DNA of 64,000 nucleotides. It comes from Candidatus Micrarchaeota archaeon. GTDB lineage: Archaea; Iainarchaeota; Iainarchaeia; Iainarchaeales; JAGVWC01. The notes beneath the pieces are model-generated. The model searched no databases and was not told where the DNA came from. It saw only the letters and a list, made by a program, of their open reading frames with translations. The DNA lies in the NCBI GenBank assembly GCA_043803815.1, contig JAZDJR010000018.1, forward strand, positions 67,659-131,658, in the 5' to 3' direction. This document shows positions 2,789-59,144 of the stretch, one piece after another (position 1 is the first letter of the stretch; the number at the start of each line of letters is the position of its first letter). Made by a program: the position numbers and the translations under genes.

Positions 2789-5700
2789 ATGCCGCAAAAA
2801 CAATTCGATTTGAGATTAAAGCTGATTTGCCATCCTCCTGTGCAGAAATATTACGAACGGCTGATGGCCAAGGCCACAAAAGAAATCGCTTTGGCGCAGT
2901 TGGCGCGCAAATCGGGAGTCGACTTGGAATCCGACATCGAGACTTTGCCGGCCTTGGACTTGGCGGACCGCTGCGAAAGCATCATCGGTCCCGCGGGAAT
3001 CGCGAAGCGTTACCGCGAAGAATTTGTGAAAACCAACGACCGGATTAAAACGATTTTTTTGCTGTTCCGCGAAATGATGGAGCAAACCGGATGGTACCGC
3101 GAGGCCGACCCGCAAAAACGCCTGGACCAGTCGATTCGAACCGCCTTGGTGCTGGTAACCGAAGGCGCGGTTGTTGCTCCGCTGGACGGCGTTCCGCGGA
3201 TATTGATTTCAAAGAATCCGGACGGTTCGCAGTACGTGGATATTTATTTTGCGGGGCCGATTCGCGCGGCCGGCGGAACCGCGACCGTGTTTCCCCTGAT
3301 TTTGGGGGATTTTGCGCGCAAACTGCTGAATCTGGACCGATACAAGCCCACCGACGACGAGGTGGAGCGGTATGTGGAAGAAACCGCGATTTATGACGAA
3401 ATCGTTTCGCGGCAATACAAATTAAAGGAAGACGAAGTGCGGAAAATTATCCGCAATTGCACGGTGTGCATTAACGGAGAGCCGACCGAAGACCGCGAAG
3501 TGTCCGTGCACCGCGACTTGGACCGCGTCCTTTCCAATCAGGTTCGCGGCGGCGCGTGCCTGGTCATCAGCGAAGGAGTCGCGTTAAAGGCGCGGAAAAT
3601 CATTTCGTATGCCAAGCAGCTTGAACTGGACTGGAACTGGCTTGAACAAATAATTAAAGTCGAAAAAAGCGACGGTTCGAAAAAAGGATTGAGCGTTAAT
3701 GACAATTTTTTGGAGCGCATGGCCGCCGGACGTCCCATTTTTTCCTATCCCTTGCGAATCGGCGGTTTTCGCCTGCGCTACGGAAGAGGCCGCAATACCG
3801 CGGCCATGGGAAAAGCGATTCATCCGGCTACCATGTATGTTTTGGACGAATTTATCGCGGTTGGAACGCAGTTAAAAGTCGAGCGCCCGGGAAAAGCCGC
3901 GGAAGTGTTTCCCTGCGATTCGATTGAAGGGCCGATTGTGCGGTTGTTCAACGGCACGGTTTTGCAAATCGATTCGGTTGCCATGGCTAATCAGTATCGC
4001 ACCCAAATCGAACGGATACTGTTTTTGGGGGACCTGCTCGCAACGGTAGGGGACTTCCGGAAAAGCGGCCATCCCTTGGTTCCGGTCGGATACTGCGAGG
4101 AATGGTGGCTTTGCGAACTTTCAAAAGCGCTAAGCGAAGGAAAAAAAACAGAGGTATCGCTTGAAGCGATTCTAAAAAAACCCAAAATAGTTTCGATTAA
4201 GCAATCCCTGCAATTAAACAGCGATTTGGGGGTGCCCTTGCATTCCAATTTTGTTTATTATTATAAGGCATTGGATTCCAAATTATTCATCGAATTGTAC
4301 AACGGGTTGTATGGCGCAAGGCAGCTGCAAGGCGAAAACGGAATCGGGTTGGAACTTTCAAACGAAGCCGATGTCAAAAGCGCCTTTGAAAAAATCGGGG
4401 TTCCGCATTCGCTTGAAAACGACGCCAAAACCATCCGAATCGGCGAGCAAACCGGCTTGGCTTTGCTGAAAACATTCGGCGTTTTGGACAACCGGACCAT
4501 TGACCCGACCCAAATCACCAACGACAATATTTTGGAAGTATTGAACCTGACAAGCGGCTTAATCATCCGCGACAAATGCGGCACTTTTATCGGCTGCCGC
4601 ATGGGCCGACCCGAAGCAAGCCATCCGCGCAAAATGATTGGAAATCCCCACACTTTGTTTCCCATCGGAACGTTTGGCGGCCCCACGCGCTCGATTAACA
4701 AAGCCGCGGTCACGAACGAAAAAAGCATTTCGCAAAAAAACGAAATCGAAGTCGAAATCGCCTTGTTTGAATGCCCCGAGTGCCGCCAAATTTCGTCTTT
4801 TCCGCAATGCGGCCATTGCCGAGCCAAAACCATTCCGCGGTACTGGTGCAAAAAATGCGAAGCCCCCGCCGCTCCCGACCGTTGCCCGAAGTGCGCGGGA
4901 AAAACGAACCGGTATAGCTTGCGCAAAATTGAGCTGAACGAAATCGTCAGCCAGGCCGCCAAAAACGTGGGAATCAAAATGCCGCCTTTGGTCAAAGGGG
5001 TCAGGGGATTAATCAACGAAACCAAGGAAGTCGAGCCATTGGAAAAAGGGATTTTGCGCGCGAATTACGACTTGCACGTGTTTCGCGACGCGACAATTCG
5101 CTATGAAATGCTTAATGCGGCCATCACGCATTTTAAGCCGGTTGAAATTCAGACTCCGGTTAGCCGGCTTCGCGAACTCGGATACGAATTTGACATGGAT
5201 GGAAAACCGCTGGAGACCGAAGACCAAATGGTGGAATTGTTTCCGCAGGATGTCATCATTAACGAGGAAGCGGGGGATTTTTTTGTAAAAGTCGCCAAGT
5301 TTTTGGACGACGAGCTTTCGCGCCTGTACGGAGTGACGGAATATTTCAAAAAAAACAAGCGCGACGAAATGGTCGGCGAACTCGTACTCGGCCTTGCGCC
5401 GCACACTTCCGCAGCGGTGGTCGGAAGAATCATCGGCTACACCAAATCGCGCCTCGGCTGGGGGCACCCGTATTTTCACCTGGCCAAGCGGCGCAACATC
5501 GACGGCGACCAGGATTCCATGATGCTTTTGATGGATGCCCTGCTGAATTTTTCGAATCATTACCTGCCGTCCAGCCGCGGCGGAAGAATGGACGCGCCTT
5601 TGGTGTTCACGATTGCGCTTACGCCAAACGAAGTGGACGACGAAGTGTACGATATGGATACCGGAACAAGCTATCCGCTGGAATTGTATGAAAAAGCGCA

Positions 5701-51111: not shown

Positions 51112-51236
51112 ACATACCCAATCGCTTCAAGAGGGAATAGCGATAGCAGAGGGGAATAGGTTCCCAAAAGGGTTCTTTTTTGGTTTTTTCACCCCAAAGG
51201 ATTATTAAAAAAAACCCCCTAACTGTTACGAAAATC

Positions 51237-53336
51237 ATGGATTCCAAAGAAAAAAACGGCTTTTTAAGGCGTTTAATGCAAAAACTGGAACGCATTTGGC
51301 GGCCCAAAAAACCGAAAACCGAAAATCAGCCCGCTCCCGATTTGGCCTTTTCAGCCGACTCCAAAAGCGATTCGGTTTCTTCAGTAAACCAGCCCAATAC
51401 CGGCCAAAGCGAAAAAACAAAAGTTTTTTCCGATGCAAAAACACAACAAGCGGGCCATCTGCCAAAATCGTCCGTTCAACTCGAAGAATTTGTTCCAACG
51501 GAAAGCCCCGTAATTAAAGCCGCGTTTGCAAAAACCGAAGCGGCGGAACCAAAATTTTCGGCTGGAAACACCGAACCAAAACTCGGGCCCGCCAAATCGT
51601 CCGAAATTTTTGTTACTGCGCCGGTTTATGTCCAAGAGACTGAAAAGCCGGCCGAAAAAACGCCCGGCATTCAATCGTTGCCTCCCTACACCAAATTGGA
51701 CTGGACAAAGCCAGAAACCAAAAAAGATTCCGCTGAATCCGGCCGTGGTTTTTCCAAAATTTTGCTACGCAAAGAAAAAATCCGGCGAAAAAAGCGGAGA
51801 AAACACGCACACCCCACCGGTGATTTGTTGGCTGGAAAGGGAATTCCGCCGCTGGCCAAAATAAAAAAAACCAAATACAAAAAAAGAAAACTGTTCAAAA
51901 AAATAAAAGAAGAACTGGCCAAAAAAACCCGAGCCAAAAAAGTGGAACTTGGAAAAGCCGTTCGCCGGGCGGTTGCCGGCGCGGTGGTCCGCAGCCTAAA
52001 AAACCAAATCGAAAAAAATTTCAAACAAATAAAAATCAAGGCTTCCCGGATTCAAATGAACGCCAAAAACGTTTCGCAAACCAAAGGAATTGAAAAAGAA
52101 TCCGCCAAAACCCGGTCTTATTCGGCAGAAAAAACGCCGCAAAAAAAAGCCGAAAACGAATCGTTTTTCCGGCAAGAACAGGAAGAAAAAACAGCGCCGG
52201 AACCGCGGACCAAAAAAGGAAGCTTTCGCGACTTGCTTGAAAAAGAGCTGAATGAGCAGCTGCCAAAAACAAAACCGAAAGCAACGGAAGAAACCAAAAA
52301 TATTACGGAAAATATCACGAGAAACATCCGAACGGCGGAAACAATCGTTCCGATAAAAAAAGCCGAGCGGGGGCTTGGCGCACAAACCGCGGACCGAAAG
52401 CAGGAAAGGGAAACCAAAACGAATAATGATTCCCGGCCCGATTTTGATGCTGCATCAGAATTTTCCGCCAAGAAAAATGTAAATTGGAAAACCGGCGAAA
52501 TGGAGGAAACCGGCGATTTAAAGCGGCAGATTTTGCGGGAACTGCAAAAACAAAAAACCAAAAGCGGGTTTAACGAACCGTATGAAAACCGGCCGATGCC
52601 ACCACCCGAAACCAAAATTGTTTATGTGCCGCAACCCCAAGCCGCGCCAGCAACCGCATCTTCGGAAAAAAACACGCCCGGCCAATCCGGACCGTTTGTT
52701 TGGCCCCAAGCCGCCGCTACGGCTCCAAGGGCCGCACCCAATACCGCAGAAGTTCAGTCGGTTCTGAAGGAATTGCGCGGCGCCCTGCAAAAAAAAGCCG
52801 AAGAAGGCAATGCCTCAATTTCAAGCGAACAATTAAACGAGTTTGAAGGGCGAATCAGCAAGCTTTTGGGGGAACGGACGGTATCCAAACAAAATGTAAT
52901 GGAAGGAATCGCGGCAATCGATTCCAACCGCGTTATCGAGGGATTTACGCGTTTATCCGAAATTCTGGAGCGTGAATTGCACAAAGACCGGATTATCAGC
53001 GCGGAAGACGAACAGCTCAGGCTGGCGGACTTGATTACCAATAAAAAAGACAAAAAGCGCCTCGTGGGAACCGAAAAAACGCTTGAAAAGAAAGAATTAA
53101 TTACCGATTTTGACAAAATATTGGAGATTGTCCGCCAAAAAGGACAGGTAAAGCTCAGCGAACTGACCGTTCTCCTTAAAATGGACAAAATCGCAGTTAA
53201 GGAAGCGTGCGACATTTTGGAGGAAAACAACCTGGTGCGAATCGATTTTCCGCCGATTGGCGAACCGCGCGTGGTCGACGTGAACTTTGAAAAGCAAAAA
53301 AACAAAAAAACCGGAAAAGAGAAAGGAACATGGTAA
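51237..53336 (+). CDS. Large low-complexity charged protein with C-terminal wHTH
   Basis: Lys/Arg-rich and Pro/Ala-rich disordered regions; TDFDKILEIV..G.V.LSEL..ILEENNLVRIDFP; overlaps the ATPase start. Confidence 0.7.
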   Translation: MDSKEKNGFLRRLMQKLERIWRPKKPKTENQPAPDLAFSADSKSDSVSSVNQPNTGQSEKTKVFSDAKTQQAGHLPKSSVQLEEFVPTESPVIKAAFAKTEAAEPKFSAGNTEPKLGPAKSSEIFVTAPVYVQETEKPAEKTPGIQSLPPYTKLDWTKPETKKDSAESGRGFSKILLRKEKIRRKKRRKHAHPTGDLLAGKGIPPLAKIKKTKYKKRKLFKKIKEELAKKTRAKKVELGKAVRRAVAGAVVRSLKNQIEKNFKQIKIKASRIQMNAKNVSQTKGIEKESAKTRSYSAEKTPQKKAENESFFRQEQEEKTAPEPRTKKGSFRDLLEKELNEQLPKTKPKATEETKNITENITRNIRTAETIVPIKKAERGLGAQTADRKQERETKTNNDSRPDFDAASEFSAKKNVNWKTGEMEETGDLKRQILRELQKQKTKSGFNEPYENRPMPPPETKIVYVPQPQAAPATASSEKNTPGQSGPFVWPQAAATAPRAAPNTAEVQSVLKELRGALQKKAEEGNASISSEQLNEFEGRISKLLGERTVSKQNVMEGIAAIDSNRVIEGFTRLSEILERELHKDRIISAEDEQLRLADLITNKKDKKRLVGTEKTLEKKELITDFDKILEIVRQKGQVKLSELTVLLKMDKIAVKEACDILEENNLVRIDFPPIGEPRVVDVNFEKQKNKKTGKEKGTW

Positions 53337-56300
53337 ACGAAACCGAAAACGTGAACGCCATTGAAATTATCCGCAAAATGATTGCGGCCGGAGCCGACGA
53401 CGCGGCTATTCTGCGCAACCTGCACGATTTGGGAATAACGGACGAAACCGCGAACCAAATGCTCAAAGCAAGCCGAACCAAAGAAACCGGTTCGGTTAGG
53501 ACGGTTCTCAGCAAGCCTGAAATCGTGATTGAAACGTATCAGCTCAAAAGCGAAGGTATGAATGTTGAAATCAACATTATCCAAAGCACCCACGGTTTTG
53601 TCCTGGAATACGCGCTCAATCTTCCCGAATACGGCAGCGGAACACGCGCCCTGCTGAACAACCTCAAAAACTCGATTATCAGCGACGCGTCCATCCGGAC
53701 CGAAAAAATGCTCGACCCCAAATTCATCGCCGATTTAAAGGAAAAATTCGGAAGCCGCGCACGCCAGATTCTGGACCACGAACTGCCCCACGCGGAAAAC
53801 GAAACCAAAAACATGCTCGTGCACGTGCTATTGCAGGAAATGCTCGGCCTTGGCAAAATCGAATTTTTGCTCGCCGATTCCAACCTCGAAGAAATCGTGA
53901 TTAATTCCGCCGCCGAACCCATCTGGGTGTACAGCAAAAAATACGGATGGCTCAAAACCAATATTTTTTTGGGAAGCGAAGAGGACATCCAAAACTTTTC
54001 AAGCATTATCGCGCGCCGCGTCGGAAAACAAATCACCACCTTAAACCCTATCTTGGACGCGCACCTGATTACGGGGGACCGCGCCAACGCGACCCTGTTT
54101 CCGATTTCCAGCCGCGGAAACACGATTACGATCCGCCGCTTTCGAAGAGACCCCTGGACAGTAACCGATTTCATCAATTCAAAAACCGTAAACGCGGAAA
54201 TCATGGCCTTGGTCTGGCTGGCAATGCAATACGAAATGAACGTCATCGTAAGCGGCGGGACGGCGAGCGGAAAAACTTCGATGATGAATGTCATGCTGCC
54301 GTTTATCCAGCCGAATCACCGCATCCTGACCATTGAAGACAGTGTTTCGGGAGAAAGCGAAATCGTTTTTGAACAAGACGGCAAAACAATCAAAACAACC
54401 GTTGGAGAATTAATTGGCGGTTTAATCGGCAATAATTTCATTAATGATTGTTCAATTCCAAATAAACACGGCATTCAAATATTATCCGTAAGAAAAGATG
54501 GTGTTGTAGAATGGAAAAAACCAAGCCGTTTTATTCGACATTGGGTAAAAAAAGACTTGATTGAAATAACAACGCAAAACGGCTGCAAAATCAAAGTAAC
54601 GCCCGATCATTCCATTTTTACGAAAAATTCCAACGGAAAACTCGTTGCAATTAATGCGAAGGAATTCAAAATCGGAACTCCAATTGCGATTCTTGAACCC
54701 AGCAACACGGGTGCTTTTGTAAATCAAAAAATGAATAAAAACCAAAGCACGGTTTTATTGCAACATCAGAAAACAAGGATACTATTTGATTTTATTCAAA
54801 AAATAAACCGAAAACCGTTCGAAGGATTTGTATACGATTTTAGCGTTCCTCAAAACGAAAGTTTTGTGGCTAATAATGTGGTTTGCCATAACACGCGCGA
54901 ATTGCAATTGCCCGAATTTCTGCACTGGGTGCCGTTGACCACGCGCGAACCCAACGCCGAGGGAAAAGGCGGGGTTTGTCTATATCCAGGAAATTGGTTT
55001 TTGCTTGGAAATGGAGAACTGCGACAAATTGACGAGTACGCTAAAGAATCTCTTCAAAGTAGGCCTTTTGAATATGTTGAAAGTAACGTGCTATCCTGTT
55101 CGGGAAACCAAGATACGGTAGTAGCCGGAGACCCTACTTGCTTTACTTATCAAACAGAGCCCATTTCAATTGTTTCAAAAGTTACCGAGCGTAAATTCAT
55201 TTGCACGGTCCATTGCGAAAATGGAGAAACGGTATCACTGACCGAAAATACCAAACTACCGGTAATCGGGGAAAACGGAAAAATCGAACTTCTTGTTCCA
55301 GCCGATATCCAAAAAGGAAAATATTACTTGCCCGCTTTCAAAAAAATCGGCTTGGAATTGCCGATTCAATCTGTTGACCTGGGTGAAATCTTTAATCAAC
55401 CAAAATTCTATGCTGTCGGGGTAAAGAAAATTTTACTGGCGCTTTTGGCGGAAGCAAAAGAAAGAGGCCAAACAAAAAAAGAAATAACAAAAAAAATGGG
55501 GTATAAACACCAGGTTCTTCAATGGTATTTAAAACGAGACATTGTTCCGGTTCCATTATTGCTGCAATTGGCCGAACAGAGCCAAATTCTTGGCAAATCG
55601 CAAATTAGCGGTCAAATCGTAAAAATCAAGGCTGCCGGCCGCTCCTCTCCAGTTGTTTTTATTCCAAGCGTGATAGATGACGAATTGGCCTATTTGGCCG
55701 GTTTTTTGCTGGCAGAAAAATGCGTGCGGCCTAACGGCGTTTTTTTCAGCCAAAAAGAAGAATTGCCATACGTAAAAAAAATTATAAAGGAAAAATTCGG
55801 ACTAGACACATACCACAGCATATTCAAAACCCAATATGGGAAATACAATAATTATGGCATCCTATCAAAACCCGTTACGCATTTTTTGCAGAGCGTTTTT
55901 GGCCTTCCAAAATCCAAACAAGTTCGGGTCCCCAAAATAATTATGCGAAGTCCCGACTCGGTAATTGCCGCGTTTTTGGCGGGTTTTATTGATGGCGATG
56001 GAAGCGTCGGAAAAGGACGAATATCGCTGGCTGCTCCCACCCAGGAAGCAGCGATAGAATTCAAATACCTTCTAACACGTTTAGGAATTTGGAGCAAAAT
56101 AGCCAAGGGTTCAAAAGTATTTAATGTAACTGTGGCGCGGCGGGAAAGTCTTCAAGAGGCCGCCAAATCAATTCCGTTTAAACGACCAAAAAACAAGGCA
56201 GACGCTGAAACAATTCTGAAAACGCCATATAATCACGCTACCAAAGAAGGGCTCATTCCCGCTTTATTGCTGCGAAACCATTTGCAGCACCTGCAAAAAA

Positions 56301-57202
56301 TTTCTACAAAAGAAAAATTTCGGCATTACTATCATTCGCTGTACAACCAAACCGCCATGCCCAAAAAATACCTCCAGGAACAACTGGGACTGGCAAAAAT
56401 TAATGAAGAAGATTTAAAAGCCGCCGAATTATTGCTGCGTGAAGATTTGGAATTTGTCAAAATTACCGGTGTTGAAATTAAACCCAATACCGAAAATATT
56501 CCAACTTATGATGTGACTCCGGCCAAATCGACTTATTTTATTGCCGGAACCCATAATTTGACCTTGGTAATGGATACGATGCTTGATTTATTGGTCAACA
56601 GCCTGCGCATGCGCCCCGACCGAATCATTGTCGGTGAAACGCGCCGCCAGGCCGAAGCCGAAGTCATGTTTGAAGGAATGCACACCGGCCACTCGGTTTA
56701 TTCCACGTTCCATGCCAACACCGCGGACGAAACCATCCGCCGGTTCATCAACGCGCCCATCAATATTTCTCCGACCATGCTGGATGCCGTGCACCTGAAT
56801 TTGGTGATGTTCCGGAACCGGCGGCTTGGGGTGCGGCGCATGCTGCAAATCGCCGAATTTATTCCAGAAAAGCGGGGCGGGGAAGAAGTCATTCATGCCA
56901 ATGTTTTGTACCGCTGGCGCGCGAGTTCGGATGAAATCGTCCGCAATTCCGAAAGCATCCGCTTTGCCGACGAACTGACCCTGCATACGGGAATGAGCGG
57001 ACAGGAAATCAGCGAAGACCTGCAAAACAAGCAAAAAATACTGGAATGGATGGTCAAAAAAAACATTCACGACGTTCAGGACGTGGGCCACGCGATGGCG
57101 GAATATTATCTTGACGAAAGCACAGTGTTGGACTGGGTAGCCAAGGACCAATTGCCCGAGTTTTTGCAGGGCAAGCGAATTTCCAAAGAGGAAAACCAAT
57201 GA
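53330..57202 (+). CDS. Type IV pilus/type II secretion ATPase (TadA/CpaF/FlaI family) containing two inteins
   Basis: EEIVIN, GDRANAT, Walker A GGTASGKT, IED/TREL, LRMRPDRIIVGE, TGH..STFHA; predicted spliced product 573 aa. Confidence 0.93.
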   Translation: MVNETENVNAIEIIRKMIAAGADDAAILRNLHDLGITDETANQMLKASRTKETGSVRTVLSKPEIVIETYQLKSEGMNVEINIIQSTHGFVLEYALNLPEYGSGTRALLNNLKNSIISDASIRTEKMLDPKFIADLKEKFGSRARQILDHELPHAENETKNMLVHVLLQEMLGLGKIEFLLADSNLEEIVINSAAEPIWVYSKKYGWLKTNIFLGSEEDIQNFSSIIARRVGKQITTLNPILDAHLITGDRANATLFPISSRGNTITIRRFRRDPWTVTDFINSKTVNAEIMALVWLAMQYEMNVIVSGGTASGKTSMMNVMLPFIQPNHRILTIEDSVSGESEIVFEQDGKTIKTTVGELIGGLIGNNFINDCSIPNKHGIQILSVRKDGVVEWKKPSRFIRHWVKKDLIEITTQNGCKIKVTPDHSIFTKNSNGKLVAINAKEFKIGTPIAILEPSNTGAFVNQKMNKNQSTVLLQHQKTRILFDFIQKINRKPFEGFVYDFSVPQNESFVANNVVCHNTRELQLPEFLHWVPLTTREPNAEGKGGVCLYPGNWFLLGNGELRQIDEYAKESLQSRPFEYVESNVLSCSGNQDTVVAGDPTCFTYQTEPISIVSKVTERKFICTVHCENGETVSLTENTKLPVIGENGKIELLVPADIQKGKYYLPAFKKIGLELPIQSVDLGEIFNQPKFYAVGVKKILLALLAEAKERGQTKKEITKKMGYKHQVLQWYLKRDIVPVPLLLQLAEQSQILGKSQISGQIVKIKAAGRSSPVVFIPSVIDDELAYLAGFLLAEKCVRPNGVFFSQKEELPYVKKIIKEKFGLDTYHSIFKTQYGKYNNYGILSKPVTHFLQSVFGLPKSKQVRVPKIIMRSPDSVIAAFLAGFIDGDGSVGKGRISLAAPTQEAAIEFKYLLTRLGIWSKIAKGSKVFNVTVARRESLQEAAKSIPFKRPKNKADAETILKTPYNHATKEGLIPALLLRNHLQHLQKISTKEKFRHYYHSLYNQTAMPKKYLQEQLGLAKINEEDLKAAELLLREDLEFVKITGVEIKPNTENIPTYDVTPAKSTYFIAGTHNLTLVMDTMLDLLVNSLRMRPDRIIVGETRRQAEAEVMFEGMHTGHSVYSTFHANTADETIRRFINAPINISPTMLDAVHLNLVMFRNRRLGVRRMLQIAEFIPEKRGGEEVIHANVLYRWRASSDEIVRNSESIRFADELTLHTGMSGQEISEDLQNKQKILEWMVKKNIHDVQDVGHAMAEYYLDESTVLDWVAKDQLPEFLQGKRISKEENQ
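54341..54892 (+). mobile_element. Mini-intein (184 aa, no endonuclease)
   Basis: IED|SVSGESEI start, block B VTPDH, block F VYDFSV, end VVCHN|T; AT-richer DNA. Confidence 0.9.
54977..56575 (+). mobile_element. Intein with LAGLIDADG endonuclease (533 aa) and atypical C-terminal Asp
   Basis: GKGGV|CLYPG start; LAYLAGFLLAE and FLAGFIDGDG; TYDVTP block F; end LVMD|TMLDLL; removal restores GKGGVTMLDLLVNSLRMRPD. Confidence 0.85.
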
Positions 57203-58128
57203 GCCCGGAATTCCAATTGATGCGAAAACGGGTGCACAAAAAAACCGTGATTCCGCTAAGCCCGTTTCCCGTCAACATGCTCAAGGGCATTATCCCTTTT
57301 TTTATCGGTTTTGGCGCGGGCTTGGCCAAGGCCATGCCCAACCTGAAAACCGAACTGGAACAGGCCGAAATCGAACTGGACGCGGAAGAATACTCGGCTA
57401 TTATGCTGTTTTTGGCCTTGTTTTATTTTGCCGCGTTTACGATTTTGGGGGTTTTGTTCGGATTAAAGCTTTTTCCGGACACGATGTGGACAACCGCCCC
57501 GATTATCGGTTTTTTTGCCGCCTTAATGGTGCTGATTCAAATCATTGCTTATCCGCATGTTTTAATCAAAAAAAAAATACGGGATTTGGAGCAAAACCTT
57601 ATTTTTGGGCTGCGCACGATTACGGTGCAAATCCGCTCCGGCGTCAGCCTGTTTGACGGATTGTCCCTGATTGCGGACGGCAATTACGGCCAGTTAAGCA
57701 CAGAATTTCAAAAAATCGTGGACGAAATCAATACCGGGATACGGGACGAAGATGCCTTGCAGCGCTCGGCCCTGCGAAATCCCTCTTTGTTTTATCGCCG
57801 CGCAATCTGGCAAATCGTCAACGGCATGAAAGCCGGCGCGGACATTACCGCGGTGCTAAGCGAACTCGTGCATTCCATGACCAAAGAACAGGTCATTCAA
57901 ATCAAAAAATACGGGGCATCGCTCAAAATGCTTTCTCTGGTGTACATGATGCTGGGAGTCATTATTCCCGCCTTGGGACTGACGTTTATCATCGTTTTGT
58001 CCACGTTTCCCCAAATTCCGATTTCCCAAATGCTGCTATGGGGGTTTTTGGGTTTTTTGATTCTGGCGCAGTTCATGTTTGTCGGATTGTTAAAAAGCAG
58101 GCGGCCGTCCCTGTTGGCCAGCGACTGA
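57199..58128 (+). CDS. Type II secretion F-domain membrane platform protein (TadB/TadC-like)
   Basis: IRSGVSL..YGQLSTEF..IWQIVNGMKAG; multiple TM helices. Confidence 0.88.
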   Translation: MSPEFQLMRKRVHKKTVIPLSPFPVNMLKGIIPFFIGFGAGLAKAMPNLKTELEQAEIELDAEEYSAIMLFLALFYFAAFTILGVLFGLKLFPDTMWTTAPIIGFFAALMVLIQIIAYPHVLIKKKIRDLEQNLIFGLRTITVQIRSGVSLFDGLSLIADGNYGQLSTEFQKIVDEINTGIRDEDALQRSALRNPSLFYRRAIWQIVNGMKAGADITAVLSELVHSMTKEQVIQIKKYGASLKMLSLVYMMLGVIIPALGLTFIIVLSTFPQIPISQMLLWGFLGFLILAQFMFVGLLKSRRPSLLASD

Positions 58129-58139
58129 AGGAAAGCAAA

Positions 58140-59144
58140 ATGGTATACCAAAGAATCGCAGCATTTGTTCCCAAGGGTTTTGCCGACAACATCCGCGGCT
58201 CGCTTAGCTACTTAAACATCAATATCGACGAGCGAAAATTTTTGGGGTTTTTGGTTGCCTACGGCTTTGCCATGGGAATCGCCGTTGCCTTATTGCTCAT
58301 GGTTTTTTTGGAACTGCCGTTTTTAATCGGATTTTTTGGCGCGTTTATCGTTTTTGTCGGCGGAGTTTACGTTTACCTTGGAATGGCCGCGGAAAGCAAA
58401 GGCCGAATCGTTGAAAAAGTTTTGCCCGACGCCCTGCAATTGATTGCATCCAACATCAAAAGCGGACTGACCACGGAGCGCGCCTTGTTCACTTCCGCGC
58501 GCCCCGAATTCGGGCCTTTGGAATTCGAATTAAAGCGCGCTTCCAAAGAAATCGTCGCCGGTTCAAGCGTGGACAAAGCATTGCTTGCCATGGGCGGACG
58601 AATCAAATCAACCACGTTTGAACGAACCGTCTGGCTCATTGCCAAAGGAATCCGTTCCGGCGGGCAAATCTCCGACTTATTAATCCAGTTATCCGATGAC
58701 CTGCGCGAACAACAGGCGGTTCAAGGAGAAAACCAGGCCGAAACCAGCATGTATATCATGCTTATTTTCATTGCCGCGGCCTTCGGAGCCCCGATTTTAT
58801 TCGGAGTATCCAGTTTTATTGTCAGCATTTTAACCAAGCAGCTCGCCAACCTGCCGACCATTGAAGTGCCCTCCGGCGCGGCTCTTCCAAGCCAATTAAA
58901 CCCCTTAATGCAAATGGCCCAAAAACGCGAAATCGTGATAACCCCCGAATTTGTGCTCGTCTTTTCGATTGCCGCCATGTTTGTAACCGCGTTTTTTGCC
59001 GCCATGACCATCGGCGTAATCAACACCGGCAAAGCCAAGCAAGGCTGGAAATTCATGCCATTGATTTTCATCATCGGCCTGTTCTTATTTTACGCCATCC
59101 GATTCGGGCTGCAAAGCGTGTTCGGCGGACTGCTGGGCACCTAA
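58140..59144 (+). CDS. Second type II secretion F-domain protein (TadC-like)
   Basis: LPDALQLIASNIKSGLT, ARPEFGPL, SGGQISDLL. Confidence 0.88.
   Translation: MVYQRIAAFVPKGFADNIRGSLSYLNINIDERKFLGFLVAYGFAMGIAVALLLMVFLELPFLIGFFGAFIVFVGGVYVYLGMAAESKGRIVEKVLPDALQLIASNIKSGLTTERALFTSARPEFGPLEFELKRASKEIVAGSSVDKALLAMGGRIKSTTFERTVWLIAKGIRSGGQISDLLIQLSDDLREQQAVQGENQAETSMYIMLIFIAAAFGAPILFGVSSFIVSILTKQLANLPTIEVPSGAALPSQLNPLMQMAQKREIVITPEFVLVFSIAAMFVTAFFAAMTIGVINTGKAKQGWKFMPLIFIIGLFLFYAIRFGLQSVFGGLLGT

Follow-up and report, generated by a model that had tools for sequence, protein, structure and literature searches.

The second of two inteins in a FlaI/TadA/VirB11-like ATPase gene of a Candidatus Micrarchaeota archaeon, referred to here as intein 2, is best read from comparison with its relatives as a working intein whose catalytic set is unusually reduced. 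The gene lies in a 64,000-nucleotide stretch of contig JAZDJR010000018.1 (assembly GCA_043803815.1), which we call the window and to which all coordinates refer. Intein 2 lacks the His at position 10 of block B (B:10), the His at F:13, and the penultimate His (G:6), and it ends in Asp. We consider it likely that intein 2 is a functional and mobile intein of the class 1 type, that it belongs to a small lineage in pilus or secretion ATPases of DPANN-type archaea, and that it would splice through a first step independent of His and through cyclization of its terminal Asp.

An earlier note on this DNA, made without database searches, had described 54977 to 56575 as an intein with three departures from the canonical form. 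The identification is borne out by the boundaries, the homologues, and the profile and structural matches, and the departures (TENT at block B, a penultimate residue other than His, and the Asp end) are real, with the missing F:13 His to be added to them. The frame and extein junction, described there as intact, indeed lie in one open frame. The features on which the argument depends are as follows; a slash marks a splice junction.

53330 to 57202, plus strand: host gene, a FlaI/TadA/VirB11-like T2SSE ATPase precursor of 1,290 amino acids with two inteins, in a single unbroken open reading frame (ORF).
54977 to 56575, plus strand: intein 2, 533 amino acids, residues 550 to 1082 of the precursor (Cys1 to Asp533), with a nested LAGLIDADG endonuclease, supported by translation and by 11 homologues with 100% coverage and delimited by intein-less orthologues.
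54977 to 54979, plus strand: Cys1 codon (TGT), the predicted N-terminal nucleophile, invariant in 12 of 12 sequences; the residue at -1 is Val (GTT).
55241 to 55252, plus strand: block B, T-E-N-T (within L-T-E-N-T-K), with Thr B:7, Asn B:9, and Thr B:10 replacing His (ACC GAA AAT ACC), placed by profile alignment.
55685 to 55720, plus strand: first LAGLIDADG motif, LAYLAGFLLAEK, with acidic residue Glu796; Y788, A790, G791, F792, A795, E796, and K797 are invariant.
55973 to 56008, plus strand: second LAGLIDADG motif, FLAGFIDGDGSV; G885, D888, G889, D890, and G891 are invariant.
56507 to 56548, plus strand: block F, Y-D(F:4)-V-T-P...T(F:13)-Y-F-I-A-G, with Asp F:4 present and the F:13 His absent; Y1060, D1061, T1063, P1064, Y1069, F1070, and G1073 are invariant.
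56561 to 56578, plus strand: block G and junction, T-L-V-M-D/T, with codons ATG GAT/ACG at 56570 to 56578 and the terminal Asp codon GAT at 56573 to 56575; D1082 and T1078 are invariant.

The limits of intein 2 were checked by searching for shorter proteins that contain the C-extein. The orthologues recovered are 500 to 572 amino acids long and 60 to 73% identical, and 92 of the 120 listed shorter orthologues read G-K-G-G-V or G-K-G-G-I, a single residue X, and M-L-D-L-L across the junction. Intein 2 therefore extends exactly from Cys550 to Asp1082 and interrupts in frame, at a single exact position, a conserved host protein of which copies without the insert are also known. The spliced junction GKGGV-TMLDLL, which the earlier note had predicted, occurs as an exact sequence in 10 of the 92 matched orthologues. 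Residue X in these 92 is S (41), T (18), G (10), N (5), A (4), E (3), K (3), Q (3), R (2), L (2), or P (1), and the residue at -1 is V in 73 and I in 19, so that the Val or Ile preceding intein 2 is a feature of the host. The insertion point is 12 residues before the host motif RPDRIIVGE, which we take to be a Walker B-like motif. A C-terminal end at AGTHN/L was rejected: its His is present in only 2 of 12 homologues, its +1 residue (Leu or Phe) is no nucleophile, and the empty alleles do not contain the six extra residues.

Several attributes of class 1 inteins are retained. Nucleophiles occupy both junctions, with Cys at position 1 in 12 of 12 family members and Thr (11) or Ser (1) at +1, and Asp F:4 and the aromatic residue at F:15 are invariant (D1061 and F1070). 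Homology to recognized splicing domains of the HINT fold was also found, as the family profile aligns at positions 2 to 530 of 539 with inteins recognized by Pfam PF14890. An AlphaFold2 (AF2) model built from a 13-sequence alignment, with an overall predicted local distance difference test (pLDDT) score of 76.9, is good for the endonuclease part and of low confidence in the C-terminal strands, and its best PDB matches are the archaeal endonuclease-bearing inteins 7qss (E, 5e-18) and 2cw7 (E, 4e-17), together with 7qst and 1dq3.

Intein 2 departs from class 1 in block B, where Thr(B:7)-x-x-His(B:10) is expected, and at its C terminus, where Asn (G:7) is expected after His (G:6). In the family profile alignment TENT shares columns with TTNH, TPEH, and TKEH of related canonical inteins, which places Thr at B:10 in all 12 members; Thr B:7 is present, and the block continues with Lys or Arg at B:11 and Pro at B:13. 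The last residue is Asp in all 14 ends available. The class 2 (KlbA-type) mechanism was rejected because it needs Ala1 and Cys1 is invariant here, and class 3, defined by the WCT set Trp B:12, Cys F:4, and Thr G:5 (PMC2807308), was rejected because the family has Leu, Ile, or Val at B:12, Asp at F:4, and Val or Ile at G:5.

The family comprises 12 full-length members, namely, intein 2 and 11 homologues (P0003 to P0013) from a large protein collection, which match it over 100% of its length with E values of 2e-234 to 1e-99 and 35 to 66% identity; their named sources are metagenome bins of Micrarchaeota, Diapherotrites, and Nanoarchaeota. A truncated member (P0019) keeps TENT, and two C-terminal fragments (P0181 and P0199) both end in MD/T. 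Cys1, T638, N640, T641, Y1060, D1061 (F:4), T1078, and D1082 are invariant in the 12. Eleven members have Val at -1 and one has Ile; next to the terminal Asp stands Met (8), Gln (2), Leu (1), or Glu (1); position F:13 holds Thr (10) or Lys (2), leaving block F without its His; and B:11 is Lys (9) or Arg (3). Across the splicing parts (intein residues 1 to 125 and 485 to 533), no column has His in three or more of the 12 sequences.

Key codons are under selection. Among six genomes carrying intein 2, the terminal Asp is encoded by GAT (4) or GAC (2), Cys1 by TGT (3) or TGC (3), Thr B:10 by ACC or ACT, and Thr+1 by ACG, ACA, or ACT. In the homologue collection that the earlier note had recommended, the departures are conserved in 12 of 12 members, and with the synonymous codon variation this indicates a variant catalytic set and neither a dead allele nor a sequencing error. 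All 12 members and the six genome loci have unbroken reading frames (no stops; open frames of 1,029 to 1,583 amino acids), and the exteins of the intein-bearing alleles are 45 to 69% identical overall, with all ATPase motifs invariant. On this comparative evidence intein 2 is probably a working variant.

The +1 position speaks to ligation. With the fragments included, it is Thr in 13 and Ser in 1 of 14 intein-bearing ends, although X is neither Ser nor Thr in 33 of the 92 empty alleles. If the draws were independent, the chance of Ser or Thr in 14 of 14 would be about 0.64 to the 14th power, or 0.002, a figure that relatedness of the sequences weakens. A residue that is free in empty alleles and is always Thr or Ser beside the intein argues for full splicing with ligation. 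Such a pattern would be predicted by selection for ligation and would not be needed by a relic or by an element that only cleaves.

Relatives were identified by running the family profile over the 150 best matches of an exhaustive search with intein 2. Only 3 of these have E values below 1e-30, and the family is therefore small. The nearest relatives, by profile (E, 1e-58 to 1e-27) and by tree, are inteins that occupy a different site in archaeal T2SSE ATPases (G-P-T-F/C...D/T-I-R-K-F; Pfam T2SSE), here called group 1. A dedicated search enlarged this group to 60 sequences (including P0024, P0021, P0036, and P0287 to P0338), with Pacearchaeota and Nanoarchaeota as named sources. Like intein 2, they have a T2SSE host, Cys1, a bulky residue at -1, Asp F:4, no F:13 His, a penultimate residue that is generally not His, and an end in Asp followed by Thr, Ser, or Cys; unlike intein 2, they lie about 280 residues upstream in the host and keep His at B:10 and B:13 (block B, TxNHxFH; 60 of 60). 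The terminal residue is Asp in 59 of 60, the 60th being truncated, and the aligned ends are IFD/T (24), VFD/T (16), MFD/T (10), LFD/T (5), IFD/S (1), LHD/T (1), and IYD/C (1), with P0329 read separately as VFD/T. Asp-terminated inteins, which the earlier note had called rare, are thus not rare in this host family. A published description of this Asp-ended clade was not found in print.

The positions that distinguish the family from group 1 are as follows.

Intein residue 72: Arg in the family, Pro in group 1.
Intein residue 76 (C625) and residue 80 (C629): Cys (12 of 12) and Cys (11 of 12) in the family, Val/Ala and Leu/Phe in group 1.
B:8: Glu in the family, variable in group 1.
B:10: Thr in the family (12 of 12), His in group 1 (57 of 57 aligned).
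B:13: Pro in the family (12 of 12), His in group 1 (57 of 57 aligned).
Residues 1063 and 1064: Thr and Pro in the family, Glu and Leu in group 1.
Residue 1076: Asn in the family (11 of 12), Pro in group 1.
Residue 1078: Thr in the family (12 of 12), Asn in group 1.

A second set of relatives, group 2, consists of 13 representatives in MCM proteins at the site S-G-A-G-L/C...HN/T-A-A-V-V (P0147, P0161, P0080, P0048, P0159, P0115, P0138, P0028, P0162, P0032, P0107, P0093, and P0125). They align with the whole length of the family profile (E, 1e-40 to 1e-26) and have T-x-N-T or T-x-E-T at block B, without His B:10, together with Leu at -1 and the end VHN/T. In a quick maximum-likelihood search of 40 inteins, with branch support from the Shimodaira-Hasegawa-like approximate likelihood ratio test, the intein 2 family (support, 100) and group 1 (100) join, and group 2 (96) sits among canonical inteins. 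Because the family joins a group of which 59 of 60 members are Asp ended, Asp is taken as a long-kept working terminus in this clade, and because group 2 stands away from the family, the loss of His B:10 was probably independent. The simplest history would have Asp G:7 and the loss of the F:13 and G:6 His as old traits of the ATPase-intein clade, after which the intein 2 family would have moved to a new site and lost both block B His residues independently of the MCM group.

Group 2 is probably the set of orthologues of Tko CDC21-1, judging from its host, its Leu at -1, and its missing His. Inteins of this type resemble intein 2 in having Cys1 and a nested LAGLIDADG endonuclease and in lacking His B:10; unlike intein 2, the MCM group has an MCM host, an HN/T end, and a retained F:13 His. 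Of the marks of membership in the Tko CDC21-1 type, intein 2 therefore shares only the His-less block B. According to PMC4031507, His B:10 is conserved above all other residues of inteins, and a single working lineage without it was known in 2014: of two inteins lacking it, one is a pseudogene and the other is Tko CDC21-1, in which Lys58 activates the N-terminal junction. The CDC21-1 group is described as combining the missing His with Leu at -1 and the compensating Lys58 (PMC4031507 and PMC6333167), and a sterically bulky -1 residue can take over the role of His B:10 in the N-S shift (PMC6333167). The F:13 His is called less conserved, and many inteins lack His G:6 (PMC4031507). PMC7664689 names only Ser or Cys at the N terminus and Asn, Gln, or Asp at the C terminus as omnipresent in class 1 and accepts rare members without His.

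Experimentally studied inteins that end in Asp or Gln (Pab and Mma PolII; CIV RNR) resemble intein 2 in the replacement of Asn by another cyclizable residue. These inteins, among them those treated by Amitai, Dassa, and Pietrokovski in 2004, reportedly keep the block B His, unlike intein 2, and the Chy RIR1 intein is said to be an Asp-ended example that has been studied. Archaeal KlbA/VirB11 inteins (class 2; Mja KlbA) occur in the same broad family of ATPase hosts, and they differ from intein 2 by starting with Ala1, needing His B:10, and ending in Asn (PMC4031507 and PMC2807308). Tabulated inteins include 21 in archaeal VirB11 (COG0630) and 5 in CpaF (PMC4760082). Splicing has been shown for inteins ending in Asp or Gln (PMC4031507 and PMC2807308), and Asp, Gln, and Glu termini can cyclize in the third step as Asn does (PMC4031507). 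With published precedent for each departure singly (PMC4031507 and PMC7664689), the claim of new biochemistry in the earlier note was too strong. In the literature searched, which did not extend to supplements such as that of PMC4760082, we found no description of the intein 2 family, of a His-free and Asp-ended intein, or of an independent origin of a His-less block B beside that of the MCM group.

For splicing itself we infer each chemical step, and the residues that compensate for the missing His, from these comparisons. Cys1 would undergo the N-S acyl shift at the Val(-1)-Cys1 bond without any histidine, the likely helpers being Thr B:7, Asn B:9, Thr B:10, Asp F:4, the beta-branched Val or Ile at -1, and a conserved basic residue, either Lys/Arg B:11 or the family-specific, invariant Arg72. 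The thioester would be passed to the hydroxyl of Thr+1. The side chain of Asp533 would then attack its own backbone carbonyl and free the intein with a cyclic anhydride in place of a succinimide, and an O-N shift would leave the peptide GKGGV-TMLDLL. It is possible, though somewhat unlikely, that the full set of further properties applies together: a genuinely His-free center (Arg72 and/or Lys/Arg B:11 with Thr B:10, Asn B:9, and Asp F:4), release through an aspartic anhydride, maturation tuned by pH or redox state that gates the pilus ATPase, and a separate class 1 subclass independent of MCM CDC21-1.

Several observations weigh against a functional class 1 intein. His B:10 is essential in the inteins tested, and natural PolII inteins ending in Gln splice slowly (both according to PMC4031507). 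The Pfam Intein_splicing model scores intein 2 alone at 15.4 bits (E, 0.017) against a cut-off of 35.8, and it is listed for only one of eight family members that carry a single intein. In the AF2 model, pLDDT falls below 50 at residues 1 to 7, 58 to 76, and 514 to 543, which comprise both junctions and blocks F and G, and active-site geometry therefore cannot be read from it. The branch joining the family to group 1 is not strongly supported (88, in the quick search). Four other T2SSE ATPase genes are present in the genome, and loss of the host gene might be tolerated. Finally, conservation points to selection on residues and by itself would not tell splicing from another outcome of self-processing.

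Conditional splicing, an insert that is a relic or only cleaves, a role of Asp other than cyclization, and a different boundary were weighed as alternatives to the functional reading, and we found positive evidence for none of the four. The boundary is fixed by the empty alleles described above. Conditional or slow splicing would follow the same chemistry, with the His-free center and Asp terminus making maturation depend on conditions and so gating the ATPase and pilus assembly. Asp cyclization is expected to favor a protonated carboxyl, and lower pH could speed splicing. Because intein 2 interrupts the ATPase core shortly ahead of the Walker B-like motif, the precursor should be inactive. 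This and the slow Gln-ended inteins (PMC4031507) fit such a scheme, as do Cys76 and Cys80, which are conserved in the family, are replaced in group 1, and could trap Cys1 in a disulfide. However, the two cysteines alternate along a strand whose counterpart in group 1 is hydrophobic, and they may be simply buried, and the AF2 model has no usable geometry. There is also no genome-wide trend, four other inteins of the genome being canonical at the terminus, and a mobile element with a conserved endonuclease does not require a host function for its persistence; we regard conditional or slow splicing as unlikely. A different resolution of the C-terminal junction appears quite improbable. Instead of cyclizing, Asp533 might serve as the general base that hydrolyzes the scissile bond once the branch has formed, or Asn527, six residues upstream, might participate: reviews leave room for other mechanisms at termini of Asp, Gln, or Glu (PMC4031507 and PMC2807308), and N1076 (Asn527) and T1078 are kept in 11 and 12 of 12 members where group 1 has Pro and Asn. 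Yet a cut at Asn527 would leave six residues that are absent from all intein-less orthologues and would have Leu or Phe at +1, which is no nucleophile. Nothing positive was found for hydrolysis, and self-cleavage through an aspartic anhydride has a precedent in the self-processing module of FrpC (PMC7846742).

The earlier note had left a choice between variant splicing chemistry and a conditional or cleavage-only element controlling piliation. Its first half stands, in the form of a variant catalytic set; for a cleavage-only or regulatory role nothing was found, and the constant Thr or Ser at +1 argues for full splicing. An insert that leaves the exteins unligated, with the ATPase working as halves, working with the insert in place, or being dispensable, might account for the three missing canonical catalytic residues and fits the presence of four paralogous ATPases; the single other intein lacking His B:10 outside the CDC21-1 group was a pseudogene (PMC3196547). 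We nevertheless hold it to be very unlikely. The frames are intact in every member and genome locus, the residues at the junctions do not vary although their codons show synonymous changes, +1 is a nucleophile despite being free in empty alleles, the exteins stay 45 to 69% identical with every ATPase motif invariant, and the ATPase would probably not bear 533 extra amino acids 12 residues ahead of the Walker B-like motif. The conservation data thus contradict the relic reading, and the functional class 1 reading is retained.

The mobility of intein 2 is suggested by its endonuclease and by its distribution. Both LAGLIDADG motifs are present with their acidic residues, E796 and D888/D890 being invariant, and the Pfam LAGLIDADG_3 match (E, 3.8e-12; residues 878 to 948) falls on the second motif and not on the first; judged by these residues, the endonuclease looks intact. 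A search covering 215 genomes of the phylum located intein 2 in 6, that of the window included, across five families of one order, and it was not found in the three other genomes (three of three) of the window's own family. The two inteins of the host gene also occur apart: intein 1 is present without intein 2 in P0197 and P0280, and intein 2 is present without intein 1 in 8 of the 11 homologues (P0003, P0004, P0006, P0007, P0009, and P0011 to P0013). The nested endonuclease would explain this patchiness, and sporadic occurrence is the pattern expected of a homing element. A search of the genome contigs for loci related to intein 2 yielded no confirmed relative. Weaker matches of the search over the 215 genomes (L007 to L012; E, about 1e-24) were rejected as other inteins, with a canonical TxxH in the five that have a readable block B.

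A groundwater metagenome run (X1; 5% of sampled words) gave short pieces from relatives at 54800 to 55201 and 56542 to 56742 and nothing usable at the Asp codon at 56573. One contig of this run (216 nucleotides, 3 differences) spans the N-terminal junction at 54965 to 55180, and another (at least 80% likeness) joins 54966 to 56609, skipping 1,642 bases, and looks like an intein-less relative. Neither was counted as evidence.

The host ORF matches Pfam T2SSE (E, 7.9e-27), Intein_splicing, and LAGLIDADG_3, and its best NCBIfam models are FlaI, TadA, and VirB11. All of these fall under their full-length cut-offs (FlaI: E, 4.4e-71; 240 bits against a cut-off of 550 bits) because the protein is interrupted by inserts. 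The archaeal ATPases 2OAP and 4II7 of the PDB align from host residues 135 and 152, respectively, to 338 and resume at 1084, and this gap in the middle of the protein reveals the two inserts. The other features of the locus are as follows.

54344 to 54892, plus strand: intein 1, a mini-intein of 183 amino acids (residues 339 to 521), Ser1...TPDH...CHN/T, at the IED/T site of the Asp-box (Pfam Intein_splicing at 346 to 521; TIGR01445 at 339 to 431).
57199 to 58128 and 58038 to 59144, plus strand: two overlapping T2SSF/FlaJ/TadC-like membrane platform genes (Pfam T2SSF; E, 4.4e-16 and 2.3e-16), in an operon with the ATPase by position.

Intein 1 is a canonical mini-intein. In the family alignment the same site in P0005, P0008, and P0010 holds far longer versions with a LAGLIDADG endonuclease, and the copy in the window has therefore lost its endonuclease. 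The two T2SSF genes share about 90 bases in different frames, so that the real start of the second may be further downstream. Directly upstream of the ATPase, and overlapping its start by 7 bases, lies an ORF of 718 amino acids rich in Lys, Glu, and Pro (51180 to 53336), for which no Pfam match was found at E values of 0.01 or below; its product may be an accessory protein of the pilus system. Together these genes form a module for secretion or one resembling a type IV pilus system.

The genome (1.08 Mb in 36 contigs; 85.6% complete; 46.6% G+C) has five T2SSE ATPase genes, the host gene included, and the need for this ATPase, which the earlier note had taken as apparent, was not borne out. For its small size the genome is rich in inteins: at least seven ORFs, on contigs C18, C16 (two), C15, C31, C25, and C9, match the intein splicing model at E values of 0.001 or below, four of them above the cut-off of the model. 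Four other inteins have readable ends (IHN/T, IHN/S, LHN/S, and VGN/S), and their terminal residue is canonical in every case, so that the Asp end is specific to intein 2 and not organism-wide. A second T2SSE ATPase, in a 1,045-amino-acid frame on the minus strand of contig C31 (about 3045 to 5120), also carries an intein. This intein ends in IVGN/S, with a penultimate Gly and the canonical Asn, and lies shortly before a T-V-H-A-N stretch that resembles the ATPase His-box.

The intein 2 family represents a second, apparently independent lineage without His B:10, lacking in addition the F:13 and penultimate His and ending in Asp, and selection has maintained it in genomes of several families. 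Its interest is moderate for intein biochemists, and with regard to host biology it is ordinary. The family offers a natural test case for the activation of the N-S acyl shift without histidine, for the catalysis of Asp cyclization, and for how many of the "essential" residues an intein needs. It may be speculated that a His-free, Asp-ended intein could give a different pH behavior for controlled cleavage in protein engineering. Because the Pfam splicing model is listed for so few members of the family, motif-based intein counts are probably too low for elements of this kind in DPANN archaea, and Asp is a common terminus, not a rare one, among the ATPase inteins of these archaea.

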